In this document: positions 9,890-45,024 of the stretch, one piece after another
How the letters are laid out: each line of letters begins with the position of its first letter
Position numbering within the stretch: the first letter of the stretch is position 1
Source: Squalus acanthias
Taxonomy: Eukaryota
Direction: 5' to 3'
DNA: 64,000 nucleotides
Assembly (NCBI GenBank): GCA_030390025.1
Contig: JASTWF010000034.1
Location: 4,712,001-4,776,000 of the forward strand
Notes under the pieces: generated by a model
Databases searched by the model: none
Told to the model about the DNA's origin: nothing
The model's input: the letters and a program-made list of their open reading frames with translations, nothing else
Program-made: the position numbers and the translations under genes

Positions 9890-10126
9890 ATGGAGAGGCC
9901 CAGAGAAAGAGCTAGGGGCTTGAGCGACGAGGCTTTGGTGGCTCTGGTTGGCGCTGTGGAACGGCGATGGGCAGTGTTGTTCCCTGTGAGGCACAGGAGG
10001 CCATTGCCCCGGGAATTTAGAAGAGTGTGGAGGGAGGTGGCTCAGCACATCTCCCCGAGGGGCCTGGTGCCGAGGAAACACACCCAATGTCAGAAGAAGT
10101 TCAACGAGCTCACTTGGGTGGTCAGG
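9890..10126 (+). pseudogene. Harbinger Myb/SANT-like DNA-binding protein, first exon
   Basis: LSDEALVALVGAVERRWAVLF...VWREVA...R..TQCQKKFNEL (trihelix/MADF-type pattern) followed by donor GTGAGT at 10127. No downstream exons recognised. Confidence 0.7.
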
Positions 10127-10304
10127 GTGAGTACCTGCTTTTCCAAACCTCGACATCCCTCCATCTCAACTTCACTTTGTGCCCAGAGGGTTTACAAACC
10201 CAAATGCCCAACACTCATTCAAACCTATGGCCATTTCATAAAACACACATCCACATCCCACACCTTGCACACATTAACCGCTATTCAACAAGATACACTA
10301 CAGC

Positions 10305-10635
10305 AACTCACCAAGGCTTCTTCGGCAGCACCTCCCAAACCCGCGACGTCTTCCACCTGGAAGGACAAGGGCAGGCGCATGGGAACACCTCCACCTTCAA
10401 GTTCCCCTCCAAGTCACACACCATCCTGACTTAGAAGTATATCGCCGATCCTTCATCATCGCTGGGTGAAAATCCTGTAACTCCCTGCTTAACAGCACTG
10501 TGGGCGTACCTTCACCACACGGACTGCAGCGGTTCAAGAACGCAGCTCACCACCACCTTCTCAAGGGCAACTAGGGATGGGCAATAAATGCTGGCCATGC
10601 CAGCGAAGCCCACATCCCATAAACGAATAAAAATA
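10305..10635 (+). mobile_element. LINE 3' tail inserted in the Harbinger remnant
   Basis: Ends GGGCAATAAATGCTGGCC...CCCACATCCCATAAACGAATAAAAA, the same tail as the SINE at 299-689. Confidence 0.7.
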
Positions 10636-10636
10636 T

Positions 10637-13600
10637 ACTATGGGAGGCACATCTGCCAAACACATGGCTGCACATAATAATGGCTATTCAGCTGTGGTAG
10701 GAACATCTGCCAAACACATGGCTGTACACAGTAATGGCTATTCAACTATGGGAGGCAAATCTGCCAAACACATGGCTGCACACATTAATGGCTATTCAAG
10801 TATGATAGGCACATCTGCCAAATACATGGCTGCACACATTATTGGCTATTCAACTATGATTGGCATATCTGCTAAACGCACGTCTGCACACAGTAATGGC
10901 TATTCAACTCTGATAGGCATATCTGCCAAACACATGTCTGCACACAGTAATGTCTATTCAACTATGATCGGCACATCTGCCAAATACATGGCTGCACACA
11001 GTAAGGGCTATTCAACTATAATAGGCACATCTGCCAAATACATGGCTGCACACATTAATGGCTGTTCAACTATGATAGGCACATCTGCCAAACACATGGC
11101 TGCACACAGTAATGGCTATTCAACTATGATAGGCACATCTGCCAAATACATGGCTGCACACATTAATGGCCATTCAACTATGATAGGCATATCTGCCAAA
11201 CGCATGGCTGCACACATTAATGGCTATTCAACTATGAAAGGCACCTCTGCCAAACACATGTCTGCACACAGTAATGTCTATTCAACTATGAGAGGCACAC
11301 CTGCCAAATACATGACTGCACACAGTAATGGCTATTCAACTATGATAGGCATATCTGCCAAATACATGTCTGCACACAGTAATGGCTATTCAACTATAAT
11401 AGGCACCTCTGCCAAACACATGTTTGCACACAGTAATGGCTATTCAACTATGGTAGGCACCTCTGCCAAACACATGTCTGCACACAGTAATGGCTATTCA
11501 ACTATGATAGGCACCTCTGCCAAATACATGGCTGCACACAGTAATGGCTATTCAACTATGAAAGGCACCTCTGCCAAATACATGGTTGCACACAGTAATG
11601 GCTATTCAACTATGATAGGCACCTCTGCCAAACACATGTCTGCACACAGTAATGGCTATTCAACTATAATAGGCAACTCTGCCAAATCCATGTCTGCACA
11701 CAGTAATGGCTATTCAACTATAATAGGCACCTCTGCCAAAGACATGGCTGCACACAGTTATGGCTATTCAACTATGATCGGCACATCTGCCAAATACATG
11801 GCTGCACACAGTAATGGCAATTCAACTATAATAGGCACATCTGCCAAATACATGGCTGCACACAGTAATGTCTATTCAACTATGATAGGCACATCTGCCA
11901 AATACATGGCTGCACACATTAATGGCTATTCAACTATGATAGGCACCTCTGCCAAACACATGGCTGCACACAGTAATGGCTATTCAACTATGATAGGCAC
12001 CTCTGCCAAACACATGGCTGCACACATTATTGGCTATTCAACTATGATAGGCATATCTGCCAAACACATGGCTGCACACAGTAATGGCTATTCAACTATG
12101 ATAGGCACATCTGCCAAATACATGGCTGCACACATTAATGGCTATTCAACTCTGATAGGCATATCTGCCAAACGCATGGCTGCACACAGTAATGGCTATT
12201 CAACTATAATAGGCACCTCTGCCAAACACATGGCTGCACACATTAATGGCTATTCAACTATGAAAGGCACCTCTGCCAAACACATGTCTGCACACAGTAA
12301 TGTCTATTCAACTAAGATAGGCACATCTGCCAAATACATGGCTGCACACATTAATGGCTGTTCAACTATGATAGGCACATCTGCCAAACACATGGCTGCA
12401 CACAGTAATGGCTATTCAACTATGATAGGCACATCTGCCAAATACATGGCTGCACACATTAATGGCCATTCAACTATGATAGGCATATCTGCCAAACGCA
12501 TGGCTGCACACATTAATGGCTATTCAACTATGAAAGGCACCTCTGCCAAACACATGTCTGCACACAGTAATGTCTATTCAACTATGATAGGCACACCTGC
12601 CAAATACATGACTGCACACAGTAATGGCTATTCAACTATGATAGGCATATCTGCCAAATACATGTCTGCACACAGTAATGGCTATTCAACTATAATAGGC
12701 ACCTCTGCCAAACACATGTTTGCACACAGTAATGGCTATTCAACTATGGTAGGCACCTCTGCCAAACACATGTCTGCACACAGTAATGGCTATTCAACTA
12801 TGATAGGCACCTCTGCCAAATACATGGCTGCACACAGTAATGGCTATTCAACTATGAAAGGCACCTCTGCCAAATACATGGTTGCACACAGTAATGGCTA
12901 TTCAACTATGATAGGCACCTCTGCCAAACACATGTCTGCACACAGTAATGGCTATTCAACTATAATAGGCAACTCTGCCAAATCCATGTCTGCACACAGT
13001 AATGGCTATTCAACTATAATAGGCACCTCTGCCAAGCACATGGCTGCACACAGTTATGGCTATTCAACTATGATCGGCACATCTGCCAAATACATGGCTG
13101 CACACAGTAATGGCAATTCAACTATAATAGGCACATCTGCCAAATACATGGCTGCACACAGTAATGTCTATTCAACTATGATAGGCACATCTGCCAAATA
13201 CATGGCTGCACACATTAATGGCTATTCAACTATTATAGGCACCTCTGCCAAACACATGGCTGCACACAGTAATGGCTATTCAACTATGATAGGCACCTCT
13301 GCCAAACACATGGCTGCACACATTATTGGCTATTCAACTATGATAGGCATATCTGCCAAACACATGGCTGCACACAGTAATGGCTATTCAACTATGATAG
13401 GCACATCTGCCAAATACATGGCTGCACACATTAATGGCTATTCAACTCTGATAGGCATATCTGCCAAACGCATGGCTGCACACAGTAATGGCTATTCAAC
13501 TATAATAGGCACCTCTGCCAAACACATGGCTGCACACATTAATGGCTATTCAACTATGAAAGGCACCTCTGCCAAACACATGTCTGCACACAGTAATGTC

Positions 13601-15393
13601 TATTCAACTAAGATAGGCACACCTGCCAAATACATGGCTGCATACAGTAACGGCTATTCAACTATGGTAGGCACTTCTGCCAAATACATGGCTGCACACA
13701 GTAATGGCTATTCAACTATGATAGGCACATCTGACAAATACATGGCTGCACACACTAATGGCTATTCAACTATGATAGGCACATCTGCCAAACACATGTC
13801 TGCACACAGTAATGTCTATTCAACTATGATAGGCATATCTGCCAAATACATGTCTGCACGCAGTAATTGCTATTCAACTATAATAGGCACCTCTGCCAAA
13901 CACATGGCTGTACACAGTAATGGCTATTCAACTATGATAGGCATATCTGCCAAACACATGGCTGCACACAGTAATGGCTATTCAACTATGATAGGCACCT
14001 CTGCCAAACACATGGCTGTACACAGTAATGGCTATTCAACTATGATAGGCATATCTGCCAAACACATGTCTGCACACAGTAATGGCTATTCAACTATGAT
14101 AGGCATATCTGCCAAACACATGGCTGCACACAGTAATGGCTATTCAACTATGGTAGGCACCTCGGCCAAACACATGGCTGCACACATTAATGGCTATTCA
14201 ACATTGAAACGCACATCTGCCAAACACATGGCTGCACACATTAATGGCTATTCAACTATGATAGGCATATCTGCCAAACGCATGGCTGCACACAGTAATG
14301 GCTATTCAACTATGAAAGGCACCTCTGCCAAACACATGTCTGCACACAGTAATGGCTATTCAACTATGGTAGGCACCTCTGCCAAACACATATCTGCACA
14401 CAGTAATGGCTATTCAACTATGGTAGGCAGCGCTGCCAAACACATGGCTGCACACAGTAATGGCTATTCAATTATGAAAGGCACCTCTGCCAAACACATG
14501 GCTGCACACAGTAATGGCTATTCAAGTATGATAGGCATATCTGCCAAACACATGGCTGCACACAGTAATGTCTATTCAACTATGAAAGGCAGCTCTGCCA
14601 AACACATGGCTGCACACAGTAATGGCTATTCAACTATGAAAGGCACCTCTGCCAAACACATGGCTGCACACATTAATGGCTATTCAACTATGAAAGGCAC
14701 CTCTGCCAAACGCATGTCTTTACACAGTAATTGCTATTCAACTATGGTAGGCACCTCTGCCAAACACATGGCTGCACACAGTAATGGCTATTCAACTATG
14801 ATAGGCACCTCTGCCAAACACATGGCTGCACTCAGTAATGGCTATTCAACTATGAAAGGCACCTCTGCCAAACACATGGCTGCACACAGTAATGGCTATT
14901 CAACTATGGTAGGCACCTCTGCCAAACACATGGCTGCACACAGTAATGGCTATTTATCTATGGTAGGCACCTCTGCCAAACACATGGCTGCACACAGTAA
15001 TGGCTATTCAACTATGGTAGGCACCTCTGCCAAACACATGTCTGCACACAGTAATGGCTATTCAACTATGGTAGGCACCTCTGCCAAACACATATCTGCA
15101 CACAGTAATGGCTATTCAACTATGGTAGGCACCTCTGCCAAACACATGGCTGCACACAGTAATGGCTATTCAACTATGGTAGGCACCTCTGCCAAACACA
15201 TGGCTGCACACAGTAATGGCTATTCAACTATGGTAGGCACCTCTGCCAAACACATGGTTGCACACAGTAATGGCTATTCAACTATGGTAGGCACCTCTGC
15301 CAAACACATGGCTGCACACAGTAATGGCTATTCAACTATGGTAGGCACCTCTGCCAAAACACATGGCTGCACACAGTGATGGCTATTCAACTA
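10637..15393. repeat. 54-bp minisatellite, ~88 copies (source of the 1579-aa ORF)
   Basis: Unit ACTATGATAGGCACCTCTGCCAAACACATGGCTGCACACAGTAATGGCTATTCA, giving 18 aa (MIGTSAKHMAAHSNGYST). Confidence 0.97.
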
Positions 15394-17134: not shown

Positions 17135-18450
17135 TTTTCACCTAATGCTCGGTATGGTTACTTACAGAGTCACAGGAACAAATCCTGGCAGATCACATCC
17201 ACATCTTTAAATGTCTGAAATATCCGCCAATCATTCAGTTCCAGTCAGTGTCTCCTTTCCCACCCTCTCCAGTTCTGCATTATTGGCACTGCTTCTGATG
17301 GTTAAAGTAGGATTACAAGGATAATTTACATGCTCACAAAACGTGCATTCAGCCAGATTTCAATACATTTCTTTCTGATCATTGTTTTGAATTTACAATT
17401 GGATGCCATGCCCGTCTGTCACAGTACAGTGGATCGCTCAGTGAGACCCAGAGTGATTCTCTATTGCCTCCTGCTGCACTTCAGGATAAACAATCCCAGC
17501 TGATTGTAACTGAAGTACTGAGGATAAGAAAATCCTTAGATATCTTCTCGTCTAATATTATTTTCTGCACAAGTTGGAAACATCGGTTGAAAAGTTCAAG
17601 GATAAATCTCTTCCATTTGTGTTCAGATACTTCACAATAGCATTCGGTGGCACTTTGCCTGTGGGATAATTTGTCTGATTTCGATGCTGATAAATGCATT
17701 TAGTGGGACATTACCTGGTCAAACATCACTATTTACTTTAATTCAGAATCCATTATTTGCAATGTTACTGGGCAAATCTTCCTTTCAATGAGCTAGAATT
17801 TGTGTATTTCAACAAAAATGCAGTAAACTCAATCTCCAAAATATATCTGATAGCCCAGTTATCTTTATAACTGCAGTGCACTTGTATTTATTATCTTAGC
17901 ATTGTCGTATTACATCCGTACATTTTACATACAATTGCCTGTAATTATTGCATGCCAAGGTTGCAGTTTCTGTATTTTGCTGTTGCATTCATTTTCAGTT
18001 CTAAATAGAATGGATATTCTAACCAGGAGCTGGAATCCAAGCGGGATTTCTCCCTCCCTAACACGGGCACAGAAGCGAACTGCACCGCTCCAAATGCTGA
18101 CTGATCCCGGGACACGAAGGCTTCCTGAGAGGGTCTGGTCCTTTGTGTCCCTGGTACCTCGGGCGGTGCTTTTTTCTGCTGGGCTAAATGTAGATCGATC
18201 ATTTAATCTCTCCTTGATCAAACATCTGTTACTTTGATATTGTATTTATTCCCATTTCAGTTATTGATTCCACAATGTATTCCCGATTATTCTTACAATA
18301 AGCCCTGTATTCAGCTCCACAGGTAATAGGATTAGATTATATCATTCAATGTCGGTAATGAGTTGCAGATTTCACCCCGAATTCCCTCAAACTGCTGCTT
18401 TTGCTCCCAGCCTGATGAATATGTTCCCTGTTTATTTCCCTTCCTCACAG

Positions 18451-19352
18451 TGAACTTAGTGACGATTGTGATCCTGTCTCGGGGAAAGTGCGGTCTCTCC
18501 AAATGTGTCACTCGCTACCTGGTGGCCATGGCAGCGGCGGATCTACTGGTCGTTATCCTCGACCTGATATTGAGGCACATTCCGATTGTTTATTTGGAAC
18601 AGTTTTATTTCGTGCGGTCCATCCCCGTGTGTAATATCCACGCCGTCCTGCTGTTCGCAGCCACAGACTGTTCTGTCTGGTTCACCGTCACTTTCACGTT
18701 TGATCGATTTGTGGCCATTTGTTGCCAGAAGCTGAAAACTAAACATTGCACCGAGAAAACGGCGGCTGTGGTTCTGGGAACAGTGACTGTGCTGAGCGGT
18801 TTAAAGAACATCACCTGGTATTTTATGTTCACAGGTTGTTATTGGCTTGGGAACAACCCCTGGTTTTGTGATGTCACAGAGGATGTTCGGAATTCACGGG
18901 TCTGGGGAACAATCGAGCTCCTTCATTATATTCTCACCCCGTGTGTCCCATTTGTGGTGATTCTGCTGCTCAATGCTGTCACCGTCAGACACATTTTAGT
19001 GGCCAGCAGAGCCCGCAGGAGACTCCGGGGTCCCAGCAGTGGGGAGATTTCCAGAGACCCAGAGATGGAGAGCCGCAGGAAATCCATCATTTTACTTCTT
19101 GTTATCTCCGCCAATTTCATCCTGTTATGGGTAGTGTTTATGGTGTATTCTATATGGGGCCGGATGTGGTATTTGGGGTATCAGTCTGTATATCTAACTA
19201 ATTATGTAATGGAACTGGGATTCATGCTGCAGCTGCTGAGTTGCTGCACAAACACTGGGATTTACGCCGTGACCCAGACTAAGTTCAGAGAGCAGTTGAA
19301 GAATTTGGGGAAATATCCCTTTACTCTGATTGTAAAATTCATTAAAGTATGA
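18451..19352 (+). CDS. exon 2 of a GPR139/GPR142-like orphan class A GPCR (TM1-TM7)
   Basis: Polypyrimidine acceptor TTCCCTTCCTCACAG| at 18450. Motifs NLVTIVIL, YLVAMAAADLL (TM2), TFDRFVAIC (DRY variant), a TM5 proline, SANFILLW (TM6) and NTGIYAVTQ (TM7). Uninterrupted to TGA. Confidence 0.92.
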
Positions 19353-22556: not shown

Positions 22557-25255
<2,699 letters not shown>

Positions 25256-32751: not shown

Positions 32752-35700
32752 GACTCGCAGGTAAATCCGTGCTATACCTGCCCTGAGAGTATGGTGCAAG
32801 GGGGAGGGATTCAAATTCCTGGGACATTGGAACCGGTTCTGGGGGAGGTGGGACCAGTACAAACCGGACGGTCTGCACCTGGGCAGGGCCGGGACCGCTG
32901 TCCCAAGGGGAGTGTTTGCTAGTGCTGTTGGGGAGGATTTAAACTAATGTGGCAGGGGGTTGGGAACCTGACCAGCGAGACAGAGGAAAGCATGTCAGGA
33001 AGGGACAGAAGGTATGGAGTAAAAGGTAAAGTGTTAAATAAGGAAAAAGCAGGAAGTAAGTGTCGCAAAACACCTTTGAAAGTTCTTTATCTGAATGCAC
33101 GTAGCATTCGTAACAAAATTGACGAGTTAACGGCACAAATAACTATGTATGGGTATGATCTTGTGGCCATTACAGAAACATGGCTGTAGGGTGACAACGT
33201 CTGGGAATTAAATATGCCAGGGTATTTAACAATCAGGAAGGACAGGCTATGTTAATAAAGGAAGGAATCACTGTAATACAGAGAAATGATATTGGGTCAA
33301 AAGATCAGGATAATGAAACAGTTTGGGTAGAGATAAGGAATAATAAGGGGAAAAAAACACTGGTGGGCGTAGTATATAGGCCTCCTAATAGTTGCAACTC
33401 TGTTGGAAGAAGTATTAATAAGGAAATAGTTGGGGCATGTAATAAGGGAACAGCTATAATTATGGGTGATTTTAACTATCATATTAACTGGACAAATCAA
33501 ATTGGGCAGGGCAGCCTTGAGGAAGAGTTTATTGAGTGTCTTAGGGATGGATTTCTTGAGCAGTATGTAACTGATCCCACAAGGGGGCAAGCAACCTTGG
33601 ACATGGTACTGTGTAATGAGTCAGGATTAATTAATAATGTCCTAGCTAAGGATCCCCTTGGAATGAGTGACCATAACATGGTTGAATTAGAGGGTGAGAA
33701 GGTTGGTTCTCAAACAAGCATGCTGAGCTTGAATAAAGGAGACTATGATAGTATGAGAGCAGAATTGATTAAAGTGGACTGGGAAAATAGATTAAAGGGT
33801 AAGACGGTACTTGAGCAGTGGTGTTCATTCAAGGAGTTATTTTACAACTTTCAAAATAAATATATTCCACTGAGGAAAAAAGGGTGTCAAAGAAATGACA
33901 GCCATCCATGGCTAAGTAAAGAAATTAAAGAAAGTATCCAACTAAAAAGAAGGACATATAAGGTAGCCAAAGTTAGTGGGAGGATAGAAGATTGGAAAGT
34001 CTTCAAAAGACAATAAAAAGTAACTAAAGGATTGATTAAGAAAGGGAAAATAGACTATGAAAATAAATTAGCAAAAAATATAAAAACAGATAGCAAGAGT
34101 TTCTATAGTTATATAAAAAGAAAAAGGGTGGTTAAGGCAAACGTAGGTCCCTTAGAGGATGAGACCGGGAAATTAATGGTGGGAAACATGGAGATGGCAA
34201 AAATGCTGAACAAATATTTTGTTTCAGTCTTTACGGTAGAGGACACTAAGAATATCCCAACACTGGACAAACAGGGGGCTCTAGTGGGGGAGCAGCTAAA
34301 TACGATTAAAATCACTAAGGAATTGGTACTCAGTAAAATAATGGGACTCAAGGCAGATAAATCCCCTGGACCTGATGGCTTACATCCTAGGGTCTTGAGG
34401 GAAGTGGCAGTAGGAATTGTGGATGCTTTGGTAATAATTTTCCAAAACTCCCTGAACTCAGCAAAGGTCCTGGCAGATTGGAAAACTGCTAATGTAACAC
34501 CCTTATTTAAAAAGGGTTGTAGGCAGAAGGCTGGAAATTATAGACCAGTTAGCGTATCATCTGTGGTGGGTAAAATTTTGGAGTCTATTATTAAGGAGAC
34601 AGTAACGGAACATTTAGATAAACATAATTTAATAGGACAAAGTCAGCATGGCTTTATGAAGGGGAAGTCATGTCTGACAAATTTGCTCGAGTTCTTTGAG
34701 GACAAAACGTACAGGGTGGATAAAGGGGAACCAGTGGATGTAGTGTATTTAGACTTCCAGAAGGCATTCGACAAGGTGCCACATAAAGATTATTACTCAA
34801 GATAAAAAATCACTGGATTGCAGGTAATATTCTGACATGGGTGGAGGATTGGTTATCTAACAGGAAGCAGAGAGTTGGGATAAATGGTTCATTCTCGGAC
34901 TGGCAACCAGTAGCCAGTGGTGTTCCGCAGGGGTCGGTGCTGGGTCCCCAACTCTTTACAATCTATATTAACGATTTGGAGGAGGGGACCGAGTGTAACA
35001 TATCAACTTTTGCAGATGATACAAAGATGGGAGGGAAAGTATAGAGTGAGGAGGACATAAAAAACCTACAAGGGGATATAGACAGGCTGGATGAGTGGGC
35101 AGAGATTTGGCAGATGCAATACAATTTTGGATAATGTGAGGTTATGCACTTTGGCAGGAAAAATCTGAGAGCAAGTTATTATCTTAATGGCGAGAAATTG
35201 GAAAGTACTGCAGTACAAAGGGATCTGGGGGTCTTGGTGCAAGAAAATCAAAAAGTTAGTAGGCAGGTGCAGCAGGTGATCAAGAAAGCCAATGGAATGT
35301 TGGCTTTTATTGCTAGTGGGATAGAATATAAAAACAGGGAGGTATTGCTGCAGTTGTATAGGGTATTGGTGAGACCGCACCTGGAGTACTGTATACAGTT
35401 TTGGTGTCCATACTTAAGAAAAGACATACTTGCTCTCGAGGCAGTACACAGAAGGTTCACTCGGTTAATTCCGGGGTTGAGGGGGTGGACATATGAGGAG
35501 AGGTTGAGTAGATTGGTTCTCTACTCATTGGAGTTATGAAGAATGAGAGGCGATCTTATTGAAACATATAAGATTGTGAAGGGGCTTGATCGGGTGGACG
35601 CGGTGAGGATGTTCCCAATGATGGGTGAAACTAGAACTAGGGGACATAATCTTAGAATAAGGGGCTGCTCTTTCAAAACTGAGATGAGGAGAAACTTTTT

Positions 35701-38015: not shown

Positions 38016-38838
38016 CCTTTGTATCTAAACTGTGCCATACCTGTCCTGGGAGAATTTGTTGGAGCGATGTATAACTGGTGCTAAATAGCCCTGGACTGTT
38101 TGATGGGGACCGTGTCGATCGAACACCACGTTGTTTCCATCCAGTGCTGTACCTGTCCTGGGAGTGCTTGATGTGAAAGCGTCGAGGGAGCTTTACTTTG
38201 TATCTAACCGGTGCTGCAGCTGATGGGTGCAATGTAGAAGGAGCTTTATTCTTTGTCTAACTGGTGCTATACCTGCCTTGGGTGTGTTTGATACACTGTA
38301 GAGCGAACTTCACTCTTTATCTGTAATGAAGTAACCAGGGATAATCATATATTGGATCTAATATTTAGAAGTGAGCCTGACCTCGTATCGGGTCTCCATG
38401 TGGGGGAACATCTGGTCAACAGTGACCACAGCATTCTACGGTTCCAACTGGAAATAAAACTGAAGGTACTGAGAACCTGCAACTCGTACCAGATTTCAGA
38501 AGAGCAAACCTCACCAAAATGGCAGATGATTTGGAACGGGTAAATTGGCTAATGAGACCGATGTAGAATATAAATGGAAAGTTTTTAAGAATAAGATAAA
38601 AAATGTGGAAAACAAATGTGTGCCCAAATTCAAAAGAAGGAAATATGGTAAGAAAAGGCCAAGGTGGCTGACTGGTTCATGGAAAAAAAGACTTTAGACA
38701 ACTGTGGGAGCAATGGGGAAAGCTTTTTCAGTTGTGAAGAGTCGGAGAATTACTAAAGTCTTCAACCTTGAAGATGATGTTCAACTATTAGAATTTAAAA
38801 ATGTTTCTAACCAAACCTGTATTAACATAGATGCACAG

Positions 38839-39032
38839 TGTCGTAAGAATGAGCCTTATGCGTGGTGAACTTAAAGTAAGCTTTAATCAACTAAAAAGGT
38901 GCTACATACAAAAGAGGTCTTAATCTATGCCTCTCCAGGATCCAACTGATCAGTCCAGTATTTATCCTGGACTAATCACAGGAAGTGATGCAATAAAGTT
39001 CGAGTGACAGGAAGCTGTATTGTGATACCACA
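38839..39032 (-). repeat. 3' LTR
   Basis: TGTGG...CGACA on the minus strand, preceded by the PPT. Confidence 0.95.
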
Positions 39033-39050
39033 TTCTCCCCCCCCAAAAGA

Positions 39051-42000
39051 TTAGGAGGCCGGGATGCTCCCTCCATTTCGTAGCCGCCGGACGAGGGAGA
39101 GCCGCACCCGTTTGGGTTCTCGTAGCGGTAGAGGGCCCCTAGCCCGTTTACCCGCCGCGGGCCGTGGACCAGAGTCCGAGTGATCCAGCCCGCTCTGTGA
39201 GGGGTCAGGACGATCCTGACTGTGTACTGGTGCCCGAACGGGTGTCGGGCAGGGCTGTGGCAGATCCGTTTCCGAGCGTACGGTACGGGGTGGATCGTGG
39301 CTGCGCGTGCGAGCCCCGACGGGCTCATAGTCAGTCTGCCCCAGGTCGGCACGCTGGAGTGAGGTACCAGCCGGCGTCAGATCCAGATTGTGATGAGAGG
39401 CACCTGGCGAGCCCAGAGATGTGCCTGGTACAATATCATCCCCTGGTGTCCCTCTATGTTTCGGCGGGCAGGGAGCCAGATCCCGCAATGACACGGTAGA
39501 TTCCCGACCGTCAGGATACCGAATATAGGCGTAGGTAGGGTTGACGTCAGTGAGCTCAACCTCATCTACCAGGGGGTCATTCTTAGACGCCCGGACATAT
39601 CTTCGGAGTAGCACTGGTCCCGGTGCAGTCAGCCACGACGGGAGAGATATCCCATAGGATGAGCGACGCTGAAATCGGAAGAACCGTTCATGAGGCGTCG
39701 TATTTGTGGCGGTCGAAAGGAGGGACCGTGTGGAGTGTAATGCGTCTGGAAGTACTGCTTCCCATTGCTGGTTGGGTAGGCCCCGAGATCTCAAAGCCAG
39801 ACGTACCGCATTCCAGATGATAGCGTTAAAACGCTCGACTTGCCCATTCCCGACCGGATGATAAGGCGTCGTTCTGCTGGCAGCAATACCCCGTTCCGAG
39901 AGATAGGCCTTGAGTTCTCCTGACATAAAAGAAGGGCCCCGATCCGAATGAACAAAGGATGCCATGCCACAGAAAGCAAACACCTGCTCAAGGCAGCTGA
40001 TAACCGTGGTCGTCAGCATATTGGGGCAGGGAAAGGCAAACGGAAAACGGGAATACTCATCGACCATGGTCAATAGATAAGTGTTGCGAGTTGAAGAGGG
40101 CAATGGCCCCTTAAAATCGATGCTAAGCCGTTGCATTGGCTGGGTCGCATGTATGAGTATACCACCCGAGGGGCGGAAAAACTGAGGTTTCAATTCCGCA
40201 CAGACTCTGCAGTCCGAGCACATCTTCTTTACATCCCCGGTAGAGAATGGGAGATTTCGGGACCGCACGAAGTGTAGCATGCGAGTAACGCCCGGATGAC
40301 ACAACCCATCATGGATGTCTACGAGCGTAGAGGGTGCCATGGCGGAGCAGAATGCTCGTGTGAGGGTATCCGGAGCCACATTCTCCTTGCCAGGTCGATA
40401 GTGGATGGTGTAACCAAAAGAGGCCAATTCCAGCCGCCAAAGCTGGATTTTATTATTTTTAATTTTGGTCCGTTTACGATTATCGAGCATGAAGGCGAAC
40501 GATCGCTGGTCCGTGATTAAGGTAAAGTGCTGGCGAGCTAGGAGATGACTCCACTTCCGTACTGCCTCTATGATGGCTGTAGCTTCTTTCTCGACTGGAG
40601 GATAATGTAGCTCAGCCCCTTGAAAAGTCCTGGACAAAAATGCCACCGGACGACCTTCCTGATTCAGAGTGGCCGAGATCGCCACCTCCGAGGCATCACA
40701 CTCAACAACAAAAGGAAGACTCTCATCGATGGAGTGAAGAGCCGCTTTCTCCAACTGTTTTTTCAGGAGGTTAAAGGCTGCAACAGCCGCTGTGTCTAGT
40801 GGGAATGTGCTGGCCTTCAGTAGAGGTTGGATTCGGTCCGAGAAGTTAGGAATCCATTTAGCATAGTATGCAAACAGGCCGAGGGCCCGGCGCAAGGAGG
40901 CCGGATTCTTAGGTGGCGGGAGTTCTTGGAGTGGGCGAAGCCTTTCAGGGTCAGGTTTAATGATGCCATTGCCCACACAATAGCCAAGGATGTTGATGGT
41001 TGGTTGTGACTCAATGGATTTAGCCGCATTTAATGTCAAATTACGGTGCTGGAGTGCATCCCAAAATCGTTGGAGATTGGCGTCATGTTCCCGCTGATTC
41101 CGACCTGCGACAGTAATATTGTCCAGATAAGGAAACGTATCCTTCAAGTCTTCCTGTTTGACCAGGTCATCCATTGCTCGCTGGAAGACAGCCACTCCAT
41201 TAGTGACCCCAAAGGGGAGGCGACGAAATTGATACAGCCGTCCATTGGCTTCAAAGGCCGTATACTGCTTGTCAGAGACCTTCAAGGGTACCTGATGATA
41301 GGCACTTTTCAGATCATATGTTGAGAACACCATGTACTCAGCCAGTTTATTAACCATATCATCGATGCGCGGCAATGGGTATGCGTCCAAGTCCGTATAT
41401 TGATTGATGGTCTGTGAATAGTCAATGCACAGCCGTTTCTTGTGAGGTTGTAGAGGGTTCTTAACAATAACGACCTGGGCACGCCATGGCGACGAACAAG
41501 ACTCGATGATATCCTCTGCTAAAAGCCGAGAAATCTCAGCCGCAATAAAAGACCGGTCTTCCTGACTGAAACGTCGTGACTTTGTTATAATCGGTTTGCA
41601 TCGAGGAGGGATACTGGTAAACAGTGAAGGTTCATCCAGTGAAGCTGCTGACAATGCACAGAACGGTAATCGAGGTCGTATATTAGAAATAGTGAGTTCA
41701 GGTTTGGATCCGCCGAACTCAATGGTGAGCTTCTTATGCTGCTTTTGAAAATCCAGCCCTAAGATAAGATCACTACATAAGTCCTTGAGCACCGAAAGCC
41801 AGGTGGAGGGATACCTGTGACCATTAAGTGTTATTTCAACCATACAAAAGCCAGAAATTCTGGTATTAAGTGATGACTGAGCCATCGCAATTGCCTGGTC
41901 CGATGGGAAAACATGTAGCTTTAACTCTGCAACAATCTGTTCCCTAATGAAACTATCAGTGCTACCTGAGTCAATTAAGGCATCTAAAGTATGTCCATTA

Positions 42001-43007
42001 ATTGATGCTTTTGTAGCTGCATGGAATAGGTTCTGAGGACAAGCAGCTGTAATTGGTGTCGTTGCACAAAGAGTGGCTGAAACTCTAGGTGTGTTTCTTC
42101 GAGAGAAAACCCGAGAGGAAGCACGATAGATTTTAGCCGGAACATCTTGATAGGTCCTTACCGGGGCAGTTCGGTAGGACTTAGCTTGATAAGCCCTCGT
42201 AGAGGCTCTTGATAGGCAAACCTTTGCAAAATGACCCTTTTTGTTGCAATGACTGCAAAACGCATTGCGAGCAGGGCAGAATTTCCGAGGGTGAAACTCA
42301 TCACCACAAAAGAAGCATTTCTTAGATTGCCAAGAGGCTGCCACAGTGGGGTCATCATCCTCTTCATCAGTGAAGTCATCAGATTGATCGTCAGGGATAA
42401 AGTCCTCCCTAATAGAGTTCACCTGTGGCCTCTTAAATTGCCTGACTGTAGTTAAGGCAGCAGACCGAGGTCTGGGCACTGTATAAAGGTCTGCATTTCT
42501 TTTTGCCAGATCTAGAGAGCAAGCCATGTCATAAGCTCTCTGAAGCTCAAGTGTCTTACTTTCCAGTAGACGCTGGCGTATAAATGGGGAGGCAAGCCCG
42601 CAGATGAAAGCATCACGGATCATTTCTTCACGGTACAGCTCAGCTGAGGCCGCCTGAAAGTTACAGTCCATACTAAGTCTGCGAAGCTCTTGGAGGAATT
42701 TATCAATGGATTCCTCCGGCCCTTGTTGGGCTGTAGCTAGTAGATGTCTGGCATAGACCTCATTCGGTGTCTTAGTATATAGCCTTTTAAGCGTCCGAAT
42801 TGCCTTCTCGTAACTGCCCCATTCCTCCACATACTGAAATACATTCGGGGTGACACAGTTGATGAGTATCCGCAACTTTGAGTCATCATCAGCCTTGCAA
42901 TATTCGAGAAAATTGTCAAACGTGCGATACCAGTGTTTCCACACCTTACCGGCTGCTGGGGTGTTTGGGTCCAAGTCAAGACGCGATGGTTTAAGGATGT
43001 TTTCCAT
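39051..43007 (-). CDS. gag-pol: intact single-ORF Gag-Pol polyprotein (Gag zinc knuckles, protease, RT, RNase H, integrase), 1318 aa
   Basis: CFFCG..HPRKFC / CSHCNKKGHFAKVC; LIDSGS; RLCIDY, DLKSAYHQ, LPFG, YLDN; CDAS, EKEA, TDQ; H-H-C-C, IDFKG, SDRG, NGQVERFN. Domain order PR-RT-RH-IN. Confidence 0.96.
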   Translation of the reverse strand: MENILKPSRLDLDPNTPAAGKVWKHWYRTFDNFLEYCKADDDSKLRILINCVTPNVFQYVEEWGSYEKAIRTLKRLYTKTPNEVYARHLLATAQQGPEESIDKFLQELRRLSMDCNFQAASAELYREEMIRDAFICGLASPFIRQRLLESKTLELQRAYDMACSLDLAKRNADLYTVPRPRSAALTTVRQFKRPQVNSIREDFIPDDQSDDFTDEEDDDPTVAASWQSKKCFFCGDEFHPRKFCPARNAFCSHCNKKGHFAKVCLSRASTRAYQAKSYRTAPVRTYQDVPAKIYRASSRVFSRRNTPRVSATLCATTPITAACPQNLFHAATKASINGHTLDALIDSGSTDSFIREQIVAELKLHVFPSDQAIAMAQSSLNTRISGFCMVEITLNGHRYPSTWLSVLKDLCSDLILGLDFQKQHKKLTIEFGGSKPELTISNIRPRLPFCALSAASLDEPSLFTSIPPRCKPIITKSRRFSQEDRSFIAAEISRLLAEDIIESCSSPWRAQVVIVKNPLQPHKKRLCIDYSQTINQYTDLDAYPLPRIDDMVNKLAEYMVFSTYDLKSAYHQVPLKVSDKQYTAFEANGRLYQFRRLPFGVTNGVAVFQRAMDDLVKQEDLKDTFPYLDNITVAGRNQREHDANLQRFWDALQHRNLTLNAAKSIESQPTINILGYCVGNGIIKPDPERLRPLQELPPPKNPASLRRALGLFAYYAKWIPNFSDRIQPLLKASTFPLDTAAVAAFNLLKKQLEKAALHSIDESLPFVVECDASEVAISATLNQEGRPVAFLSRTFQGAELHYPPVEKEATAIIEAVRKWSHLLARQHFTLITDQRSFAFMLDNRKRTKIKNNKIQLWRLELASFGYTIHYRPGKENVAPDTLTRAFCSAMAPSTLVDIHDGLCHPGVTRMLHFVRSRNLPFSTGDVKKMCSDCRVCAELKPQFFRPSGGILIHATQPMQRLSIDFKGPLPSSTRNTYLLTMVDEYSRFPFAFPCPNMLTTTVISCLEQVFAFCGMASFVHSDRGPSFMSGELKAYLSERGIAASRTTPYHPVGNGQVERFNAIIWNAVRLALRSRGLPNQQWEAVLPDALHSTRSLLSTATNTTPHERFFRFQRRSSYGISLPSWLTAPGPVLLRRYVRASKNDPLVDEVELTDVNPTYAYIRYPDGRESTVSLRDLAPCPPKHRGTPGDDIVPGTSLGSPGASHHNLDLTPAGTSLQRADLGQTDYEPVGARTRSHDPPRTVRSETDLPQPCPTPVRAPVHSQDRPDPSQSGLDHSDSGPRPAAGKRARGPLPLREPKRVRLSLVRRLRNGGSIPAS

Positions 43008-43085
43008 GATGGGTGATTCCCTGGATCCTTAGTTCCGAGTTCGTCTAAAAAGTTTGAGTGCGAAGTTTTTCAAAGTTGATTAAAT

Positions 43086-43279
43086 TGTCGTAAGAATGAG
43101 CCTTACGCGTGGTGAACTTAAAGTAAGCTTTAATCAACTAAAAAGGTGCTACATACAAAAGAGGTCTTACTCTATGCCTCTCCAGGATCCAACTGATCAG
43201 TCCAGTATTTATCCTGGACTAATCACAGGAAGTGATGCAATAAAGTTCGAGTCACAGGAAGCTGTATTGTGTTACCAAA
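43086..43279 (-). repeat. 5' LTR
   Basis: Direct repeat of 38839-39032; the terminal TG is mutated to TT. Confidence 0.95.
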
Positions 43280-45024
43280 CACAGATTGTTTTAGAAATAA
43301 TTAAGAACTTGAAAATAGATGGAGCAGCCGGGCCGGATGGTATCCACTCGACAGTCCTCAGGGAGATGGGGCATGTGCTTTGCTGGACCCGAGCCTGTAT
43401 TTTTAAAACCTTACTGCACTCTGGAATGGTTCCTGTAGACTGCAAGGAGGCTAATGTAGTCCACATCGTTACAAAAGGTGACAAGACAGACCCGGGTAAG
43501 TATAGGCCCATTAGTTTAACATCAGTAATAGGTAATATGCTTGAAGGAATCATTAAGGATGCAATATATGAATACTTGGATAGAGAGGGTCATATTAGGG
43601 ACACCCAACATGACTTCATAACAAGGCGGTCATGTCTTACAAATCTAATTGTATTTTTGAAGAAGTTACAAAGTTGGTGGATAAGGTACCGCATAAGAGG
43701 CTTCTCTATAAGATCAAATACTCTGGTATTAGTGGTAATATATTGAGCTGGATTCAGAACTGGATGGCAGGACGTAGGCAAAAAAGTAGTTATAGATGGA
43801 TTGGGAACTGTTTGGAGACCGTTCATCAGTGGTGTCCCACAGGGATCAGTGTTGGGAGTGTTGCGCTTTACTATTTTTATTAATGATCTGGATGTAGGTG
43901 TTGGGGGCACAATCTGAAAATTTGCAGATGATACCAAGAATTGTGCGAGTGTTAGAACTGTAGATGATGATCGTCCGCTTCAGCCAGATCTTAATCTGTT
44001 GGGTGATTGGTCTCAAGACTGGAAAATGATGTATAACTTAAATACGTGCAGTGTTATGCATGTGGGAAGGGCAAATGCTAAACATTCATACACCCTTCAG
44101 GGAAAGGCATTACAGATAGTGCATACATCCTTAAAGGTACATGAGCAAAGCTGTGCAGCGATAGCTAGAGCAAATAGGGTGTTGGGGCGTATCCATAGGA
44201 CAATCGAGTACAGGGCGAGGCATACTGTTTTTCCTTGTAAAGGACATTAGTCAGGCCACACTTGAAATATTGTGCCCAGTTTTGATCTCCTCACATGGTG
44301 GGTGATATTGAGGCTTTGGAAAGGGTACAGAGGAGGAGCCACTAGACTAATTCCCAGTGTAAAGTGTCTTAGTTATCAAGAAAGGCTAAAAGGGTTGGGA
44401 TGTTCTACCTTAGAGAAGCGTAGACTTAGCGGAGATCTGATTGAGGTTTATAAGTTAATGAAGGGAATAGATTTTGTACCAGCTGGCAGTTTATTTCAAT
44501 TAGGCAGGACCAGGGCTCACTAACTGAAGTTGTATGAGTCTACATCTAGATTAGATGTCAGGAGGTGGTTCGTTTCCCAGACAGGCTGCCTACTCATGTG
44601 GTGAATGCGGAACGCTGAATTCCTTGAAGCGAGAGCTGGACCTGCTTCTGGCTGGGGCGGAGATCACCTCTTACAGAAGGCAGGTACGGAGGGGAATTCA
44701 GGGCCAGAGTGATCTCCTGGATTAGTTTCCATTGCCTAGATGGGTTAGAGAGGAATTTCCCTGGTTTATTTTCCCCAAATTGGCCTGCGTTTTTCGCCTC
44801 TCCCAGGATATCACATGGTTTCAGGTGGGGTGGAGCGTATATGTTGTGATACACAAGGGACCTCAATTGTGTGGGACAGGCTCGATGGACCAAATGGTCT
44901 TTAATTGTCCGTCAATGTTTATATGTGTGTCCTATCCCGTGCTTTACCTGCCCTGGGAGTGTTTGATGGGACTGTGTAGAGGGAGATTTACCCTTTATCT
45001 AACCCATGTTGTACCGCCCCTAAC

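Follow-up and report, generated by a model that had tools for sequence, protein, structure and literature searches.

A Ty3/Gypsy-type LTR retrotransposon in the window (the whole 64,000-nucleotide stretch of Squalus acanthias DNA analysed here) has YLDN in place of YxDD at the active site of its reverse transcriptase (RT). Sequence comparisons show that the catalytic variant is real and lineage-wide, and that it has reverted repeatedly within a Gypsy lineage that is mobile. The element belongs to a recently amplified family with Asn in every counted copy, and its RT probably polymerises with D565, D629, and Asn630.

Architecture of the element and its YLDN motif

The sequence-only reading had reported YLDN at the RT active site of an otherwise intact element, and both observations hold. 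The codons are TAT CTG GAC AAT, and the catalytic Asp565, the protease DSG motif, the acidic residues of RNase H (D771/E808/D833), and those of the integrase core (spaced D(961)..D(1021)..E(1057), as read off the sequence) are all present in a 1318-aa gag-pol ORF with no internal stop (43007-39051). The interval given at that time, 41115-41135, covers the motif but spans FPYLDNI, while YLDN proper is shorter (Table 1). The 5' and 3' LTRs show 5 differences over 194 bp.

Table 1. Coordinates of the element and its parts in the window.
Feature	Position	Strand	Remark
LTR element, whole	38839-43279	minus	4,441 bp, Ty3/Gypsy
Target-site duplication (TSD), 5 bp	left 38834..38838, right 43280-43284		both copies flank the element
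5' LTR, 194 bp	43086..43279	minus	starts with TT in this copy but with TG in siblings
LTR segment complementary to the PBS (predicted self-primer)	43129..43139	minus	ends in ATTAAA, a poly(A)-signal-like hexamer
Primer-binding site (PBS)	43074..43084	minus	exact 11-nt complement of the LTR segment; not tRNA-like
gag-pol, single ORF, 1318 aa	39051..43007	minus	Gag, PR, RT, RNase H, and IN, then a C-terminal tail without constraint
Aspartic protease domain	41733..42011	minus	Pfam PF13650/PF13975
Protease DSG motif	41964-41972	minus	read off the sequence
RT domain	40908..41540	minus	Pfam RVT_1, E 4.6e-22
RT motif A, catalytic Asp565 (YDLKSAYHQ)	41313..41315	minus	D in 117/121 Asn-type rows; 2 gaps
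RT motif C, YLDN, aa 627-630	41118..41129	minus	codons as in the text
Asn630 codon	41118-41120	minus	last residue of YLDN
Thr632, +2 from Asn630	41112..41114	minus	candidate permissive residue, not required
RNase H domain	40416..40784	minus	Pfam PF17917/PF17919
Integrase zinc finger and core	39855..40328	minus	PF17921 (below the curated cut-off), PF00665
C-terminal tail, ~130 aa, aa 1190-1318	39054-39440	minus	after the integrase; omega about 1
Polypurine tract	39033..39044	minus	element annotation
3' LTR, 194 bp, TG...CA	38839..39032	minus	LTR comparison

The Pfam domains follow the Ty3/Gypsy order, PR-RT-RNase H-IN, and the structural features of Ty3/Gypsy (Metaviridae) elements, namely TG...CA LTRs, a TSD of 4-6 bp, a PBS, and a polypurine tract, are present; among the Ty3/Gypsy features tested, the typical YxDD is the only one that is missing. 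By sequence, the best solved structure for RT-RNase H is Ty3 RT (4ol8, E 1.7e-51), whose YLDD aligns with YLDN without gaps. A predicted AlphaFold (AF2) model of RT-RNase H, based on a 75-row alignment (pLDDT 89.4, pTM 0.75), matches CaMV RT best and Ty3 RT second in a Foldseek search (Ty3 E 3.7e-29).

Two other affiliations were considered and rejected. BEL elements are marked by a triple Cys-His box in Gag, a long DDE spacing, and a BEL-type RT (PMC554778). Here, Gag has only two knuckles, both of the CCHC type as read off the sequence, the integrase spacing is that given above, and the best matches are Ty3-type. As for chromoviruses, no chromodomain match to Pfam was found at the integrase C-terminus, where the tail is unconstrained, and the RT belongs to a long-stemmed lineage of its own in a tree that contains no named chromovirus. 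Going by element size and Gag type, the lineage may correspond to the Cigr-1 clade; Cigr-1 of Ciona is likewise a short single-ORF element (~4.2 kb) with a Mag/SURL-like Gag. The Cigr-1 clade of Ty3/Gypsy is a named one, present in molluscs and annelids; the available portions of its descriptions mention neither the RT motif nor the PBS (PMC6238403, PMC8556966).

The element sits inside a decayed LINE-like RT fragment (38300-38838 and 43280-44560), which is presumably CR1-like. Elsewhere in the window, a single-exon rhodopsin-family GPCR ORF of 329 aa is found at 18363-19352 (+) (PF00001), and a 54-bp tandem array of ~87 copies at 10530-15380 has a stop-free frame of 1579 codons on the + strand. 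The array has a Harbinger-type DDE nuclease fragment on one side (PF13359, 15749-16228 (-)) and, on the other, an ORF without a Pfam match (9890-10429 (+)) that we take to be Myb/SANT-like. A stretch at 23153-25034 (+), also without a Pfam match, is presumably a broken hAT/Buster-like transposase, and LINE ORF2 fragments with endonuclease and RT matches lie at 33249-34805 (+).

Genomic copies and selection on the reverse transcriptase

The 3.7 Gb genome was searched by nucleotide pattern because the 30 best protein matches, all of them YLDN, are biased toward identity. With an Asn codon (AAY), the 32-nt context has 2,203 exact matches in the genome, all with the same YLDN codons, and the context with any other first base of that codon has none. 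When an Asp-codon (GAY) pattern was used with one mismatch allowed, the total was still 2,203; therefore, no Asp copy exists within that distance. First-base variants at the Asn codon thus number 0/2,203, versus about 3 expected from the variation among sampled copies. Degenerate patterns for the lineage gave 3,265 Asn matches versus 1 Asp match in the whole genome. The 3,265 comprise at least three families differing in synonymous codons, and the lone Asp-type match is a stray copy of the third family, itself an Asn family. In addition, contigs spanning the site retained the Asn codon in 4/4 public runs with four different organism labels.

Two further YLDN families were located in the same genome (G000:C1:1160531, loci L102-L111, and G000:C1:41487676, loci L112-L120). 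They are ~81% identical in RT-RNase H, with LTRs of 209-219 bp and the same PBS core.

Age and selection were assessed on a sample of 40 copies from contig C1, namely those that come first among the 2,203 matches. Both LTRs are present in 34/40 copies; they are identical in 19 of these 34, and 32 of the 34 have a perfect 5-bp TSD. An ORF of at least 1,300 aa is kept in 19/40 copies, and the median divergence from the commonest codon per column is 0.63%. The family is very young and recently amplified.

Variants shared by 3 or more copies were compared with singletons, while those in exactly 2 copies were left uncounted. Shared variants are informative because they have passed through replicating templates. 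In the RT, 13 shared variants are synonymous and 2 non-synonymous (omega 0.05), as compared with 18 and 37 among singletons (omega 0.61; Fisher p = 2.6e-4), and the shared variants of RNase H are 10 and 1. The C-terminal tail is neutral (omega 1.06) and provides an internal control, and the protease (omega 0.58, few sites) has no purifying signal of the RT kind. The strong purifying signal in shared RT variants shows that the Asn-bearing RT was under selection during amplification. This selection is the main, indirect support for the conclusion that the Asn-bearing RT is likely to be catalytically active. No read matched the element in the 12% of a raw poly(A) RNA run that was read, a run in which the presence of the host is not shown.

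These results bear on three alternatives. The sequence-only reading had considered a single inactivating GAT>AAT change private to this copy, a view that would have sibling copies all carrying YLDD. The siblings proved to be Asn without exception, the LTRs are young, and the RT is under purifying selection. An assembly error or chance was likewise rejected, given the same codons at 2,203 places and in the contigs of 4/4 public runs. With 95/120 homologues carrying Asn as well (see below), a private mutation and an assembly error are both refuted.

Alternatively, the YLDN polymerase may be dead or weak, with some other Gypsy family supplying a YxDD RT that copies the element in trans. Such a scheme would fit Ty1 and Ty3, in which D-to-N is lethal for transposition, and the genome survey covered this lineage alone. 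However, judged by shared variants, few parts of the ORF are as constrained as the RT, the single Asp-type match of the lineage pattern belongs to an Asn family, and Asn families that retain D565 and D629 have lasted in several animal phyla. Copying in trans is thus very improbable.

It is also very improbable that Asp is restored after transcription, either by A-to-I editing of the first base of the codon or by deamidation of Asn in the protein. The Asn codon is indeed one A-to-G step from an Asp codon, but edited genomic RNA would yield insertions with an Asp codon, of which 0/2,203 were found. The contigs of the four runs, one of them guessed to be RNA, have no variant at this codon, although contigs drop rare variants. 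Asn before Ile/Val is a context of slow deamidation, which counts against the protein route.

Spread across animals and the primer site

Of 1,054 homologues, the best 120 divide into 95 with Asn and 25 with Asp. Named hosts of Asn-type elements include crustaceans (Macrobrachium, Palaemon, and Caligus), a soft coral (Xenia), and a shark (Scyliorhinus); Paramuricea, Acropora, and Montipora are members of Asn-type clusters, and the Trichuris homologue has Asp. With 14 members listed per cluster, the state is constant in the five Asp clusters (41/41 covering members), and 30/32 covering members of four Asn clusters have Asn, the others being YLEN and YLDK. A survey by identity class used the best 150 representatives at 50% clustering. 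In this set, all rows below 38% identity have YxDD (66/66), and Asn is found in 1/13 rows at 38-45%, in 20/52 at 45-55%, and in 12/16 covering rows above 55%.

In a FastTree phylogeny of 254 rows, built without short or non-covering rows, the relatives group in a single lineage on a long stem (188 rows, support 100). Its basal rows are Asp in 33/34 cases, and an Asn-rich subclade of 154 rows (support 97) has Asn in 120, Asp in 32, and another residue in 2. The support of this subclade drops to 39 once partial loci are added, so its exact base is unsure. The FastTree topology needs 13 D/N changes, 9 of which are forced by strong branches, and an IQ-TREE phylogeny of 121 rows needs 9, of which 7 are forced; the trait column was included in both. 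A single Asn clade was rejected (p-AU 1.2e-5) with 42 hand-picked rows, the trait residue being masked in 38 of them.

Overall, Asn is confined in these trees to one Gypsy lineage and has been swapped with Asp at least 9 times. The simplest reading is one early gain of Asn, repeated reversions, and a separate gain in P0200; however, several independent gains may have occurred. The second explanation of the sequence-only reading, a lineage-wide non-canonical catalytic centre, is supported by this comparison of the RTs of genomic copies and cross-species homologues, since Asn is common to the copies and most relatives, in one lineage, and the 66 outgroup RTs have Asp. As for other databases, a scan of IMG/VR with basal members returned 42 pattern matches and 0 relatives, and a scan of GTDB returned 9 loci of the lineage (L202-L210) in contigs of bacterial MAGs, which are likely to be animal (host) contamination.

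The PBS of the element is the exact complement of 11 nt of its own LTR, ~54 nt upstream of the LTR end and in the orientation of a self-primer. Self-priming has been proposed for Tf1 and Tj1, whose PBS is complementary to their own 5' LTR over about 11 nt or more (PMC4600332). The present element resembles Tf1, Tj1, and sushi in this complementarity and also in co-variation, as the PBS and the LTR arm change in concert between families. An ATTAAA/AATAAA-like hexamer usually terminates the LTR arm with which the PBS is predicted to pair (43129-43139 minus; L129, L140, L158, L174, and L189), and the predicted pairing could also mask the 5' poly(A) signal.

The PBS was surveyed in 80 metagenome loci, of which 37 could be scored, 40 lacked a gag start, and 3 were at a contig end. 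Several loci belong to the same family, and the motif of 3 loci was read separately. A stem was called at a score of at least 11 that also exceeded all in-ORF control windows, a threshold set after the scores were known; by this call, stems are present in 20/25 Asn loci, 10/11 Asp loci, and 1 YLDS locus. Two contig-end loci, both Asp and basally placed, have exact complements of 12 and 14 nt. Since Asn and Asp loci alike have the stem, predicted self-priming spans both states, and it probably predates Asn.

The sequence-only reading had also suggested that Asn possibly co-evolved with self-priming. One conceivable basis would be a balance between polymerisation and the cutting of the primer hairpin by RNase H. 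The self-complementary PBS in all three Asn families of the genome agrees with such a link, as does the partial suppression of Ty1 D211N by RNase H mutations. Against it stand the stem counts in Asp and Asn loci, the stems of Asp-type loci placed basally, outside the Asn-rich subclade, in a weakly supported tree (L123, L125, and L150), and at least 9 D/N switches without stem loss. Tight coupling is largely refuted and co-evolution is improbable, though self-priming may be merely permissive for Asn.

An Asn centre among known polymerases

The last Asp of YxDD had been described as nearly invariant, with D-to-N blocking transposition of Ty1. The loss of transposition stands, for Ty3 as well as for Ty1; on the other hand, polymerase activity is kept, and Asn occurs naturally in belpaoviruses. 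In Ty3, D151N and D213N abolish polymerase activity, whereas D214N keeps it with lower processivity, and all three are lethal for transposition (PMC5371799). Ty1 D211N is an active polymerase with a 223-fold lower kpol and a preference for Mn; its transposition is lost, and RNase H suppressors bring back 5-10% of it (PMC2148107). Polymerases of Mononegavirales and birnaviruses have a natural Asn at the equivalent position (PMC4634563). Therefore, a two-aspartate centre is chemically plausible, and it is the absence of a transposition defect that needs explaining.

In the proposed mechanism, D565 and D629 would bind two metals as in Ty3, and the amide at position 630 would still serve in positioning or hydrogen bonding. 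Changes specific to the lineage near the active site (candidates are Thr632 and the fingers residues R509, Q511, and T533) would make position 630 tolerant, and on this background it would then alternate repeatedly between Asp and Asn. For the minus strand, Tf1-like self-priming is predicted; it would be common to the whole lineage and independent of the D/N state.

In the alignment, D629 is conserved in 121/121 Asn-type rows. Thr632 is found in 113/121 Asn rows, 32/32 Asp rows of the subclade, 8/33 basal Asp rows, and 0/66 outgroups; it is also present in the separate gain P0200 and missing from 8/121 Asn rows. The three fingers residues are lineage-wide and differ from those of the outgroups. 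Significant co-variation with the D/N switch was seen for none of the residues in 8-9 independent pairs (the best, V616 and D517, in ~3.5 of 9 pairs), a result compatible with near-neutral toggling where the background is tolerant, and no extra conserved acid specific to Asn was found in the RT alignment.

It is conceivable, though rather unlikely, that the whole lineage remodelled its RT active site. In that case Asn would serve fully as the third residue and would sometimes be preferred, much as in viral GDN polymerases; metal use might be altered, or the polymerase might be slower and tuned to RNase H. Since 32/154 rows of the subclade have Asp, whether regained or kept, Asn is not clearly favoured. 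A tolerant position 630 with two metal-binding aspartates is the reading preferred here.

Three of the closest known systems have Asn at this position. Nematode belpaoviruses (BEL/Pao: Atlas and Cer13, with Tas cited) are intact LTR elements with a natural YVDN (PMC9094657), and thus share the Asp-to-Asn change at the last YxDD position. They belong, however, to a different superfamily, the present element being Ty3/Gypsy by structure and sequence and having no env. Since basal members of the lineage and the outgroups have YxDD, its Asn change is independent of that of belpaoviruses, and it toggles. The Ty3 D214N and Ty1 D211N mutants have Asn at the same position of the same fold and keep polymerase activity; unlike these mutants, which cannot transpose, the Asn form here has more than 2,200 recent insertions. 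Mononegavirales L (GDN) and the birnavirus polymerase are palm polymerases that work naturally with Asn as the second residue of motif C, but they are RNA-dependent RNA polymerases, and in Mononegavirales Asn is described as fixed and required (PMC4634563), whereas it alternates with Asp here. A literature search for YxDN in Ty3/Gypsy found no report, and YXDN, YVDN, YIDN, YLDN, or YMDN together with retrotransposon was found for BEL/Pao only; subscription journals, Repbase Reports, and GyDB lay outside its scope, and an earlier mention there is possible.

An RT is taken to be live when it has the last Asp of YxDD, and an element to be dead when that Asp is lost. This young family of more than 2,200 copies and a Gypsy lineage spanning phyla show that the rule can fail in Ty3/Gypsy. 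Natural Asn/Asp sister enzymes (P0094/P0102 and P0059/P0081) allow the role of the third Asp to be asked without engineering, and the old puzzle that Ty1 D211N and Ty3 D214N polymerise yet cannot transpose is now testable. If the site has been remodelled, such sister pairs would show what part the third Asp plays in transposition and which neighbouring residues make it dispensable. The same lineage extends predicted self-priming beyond chromoviruses.
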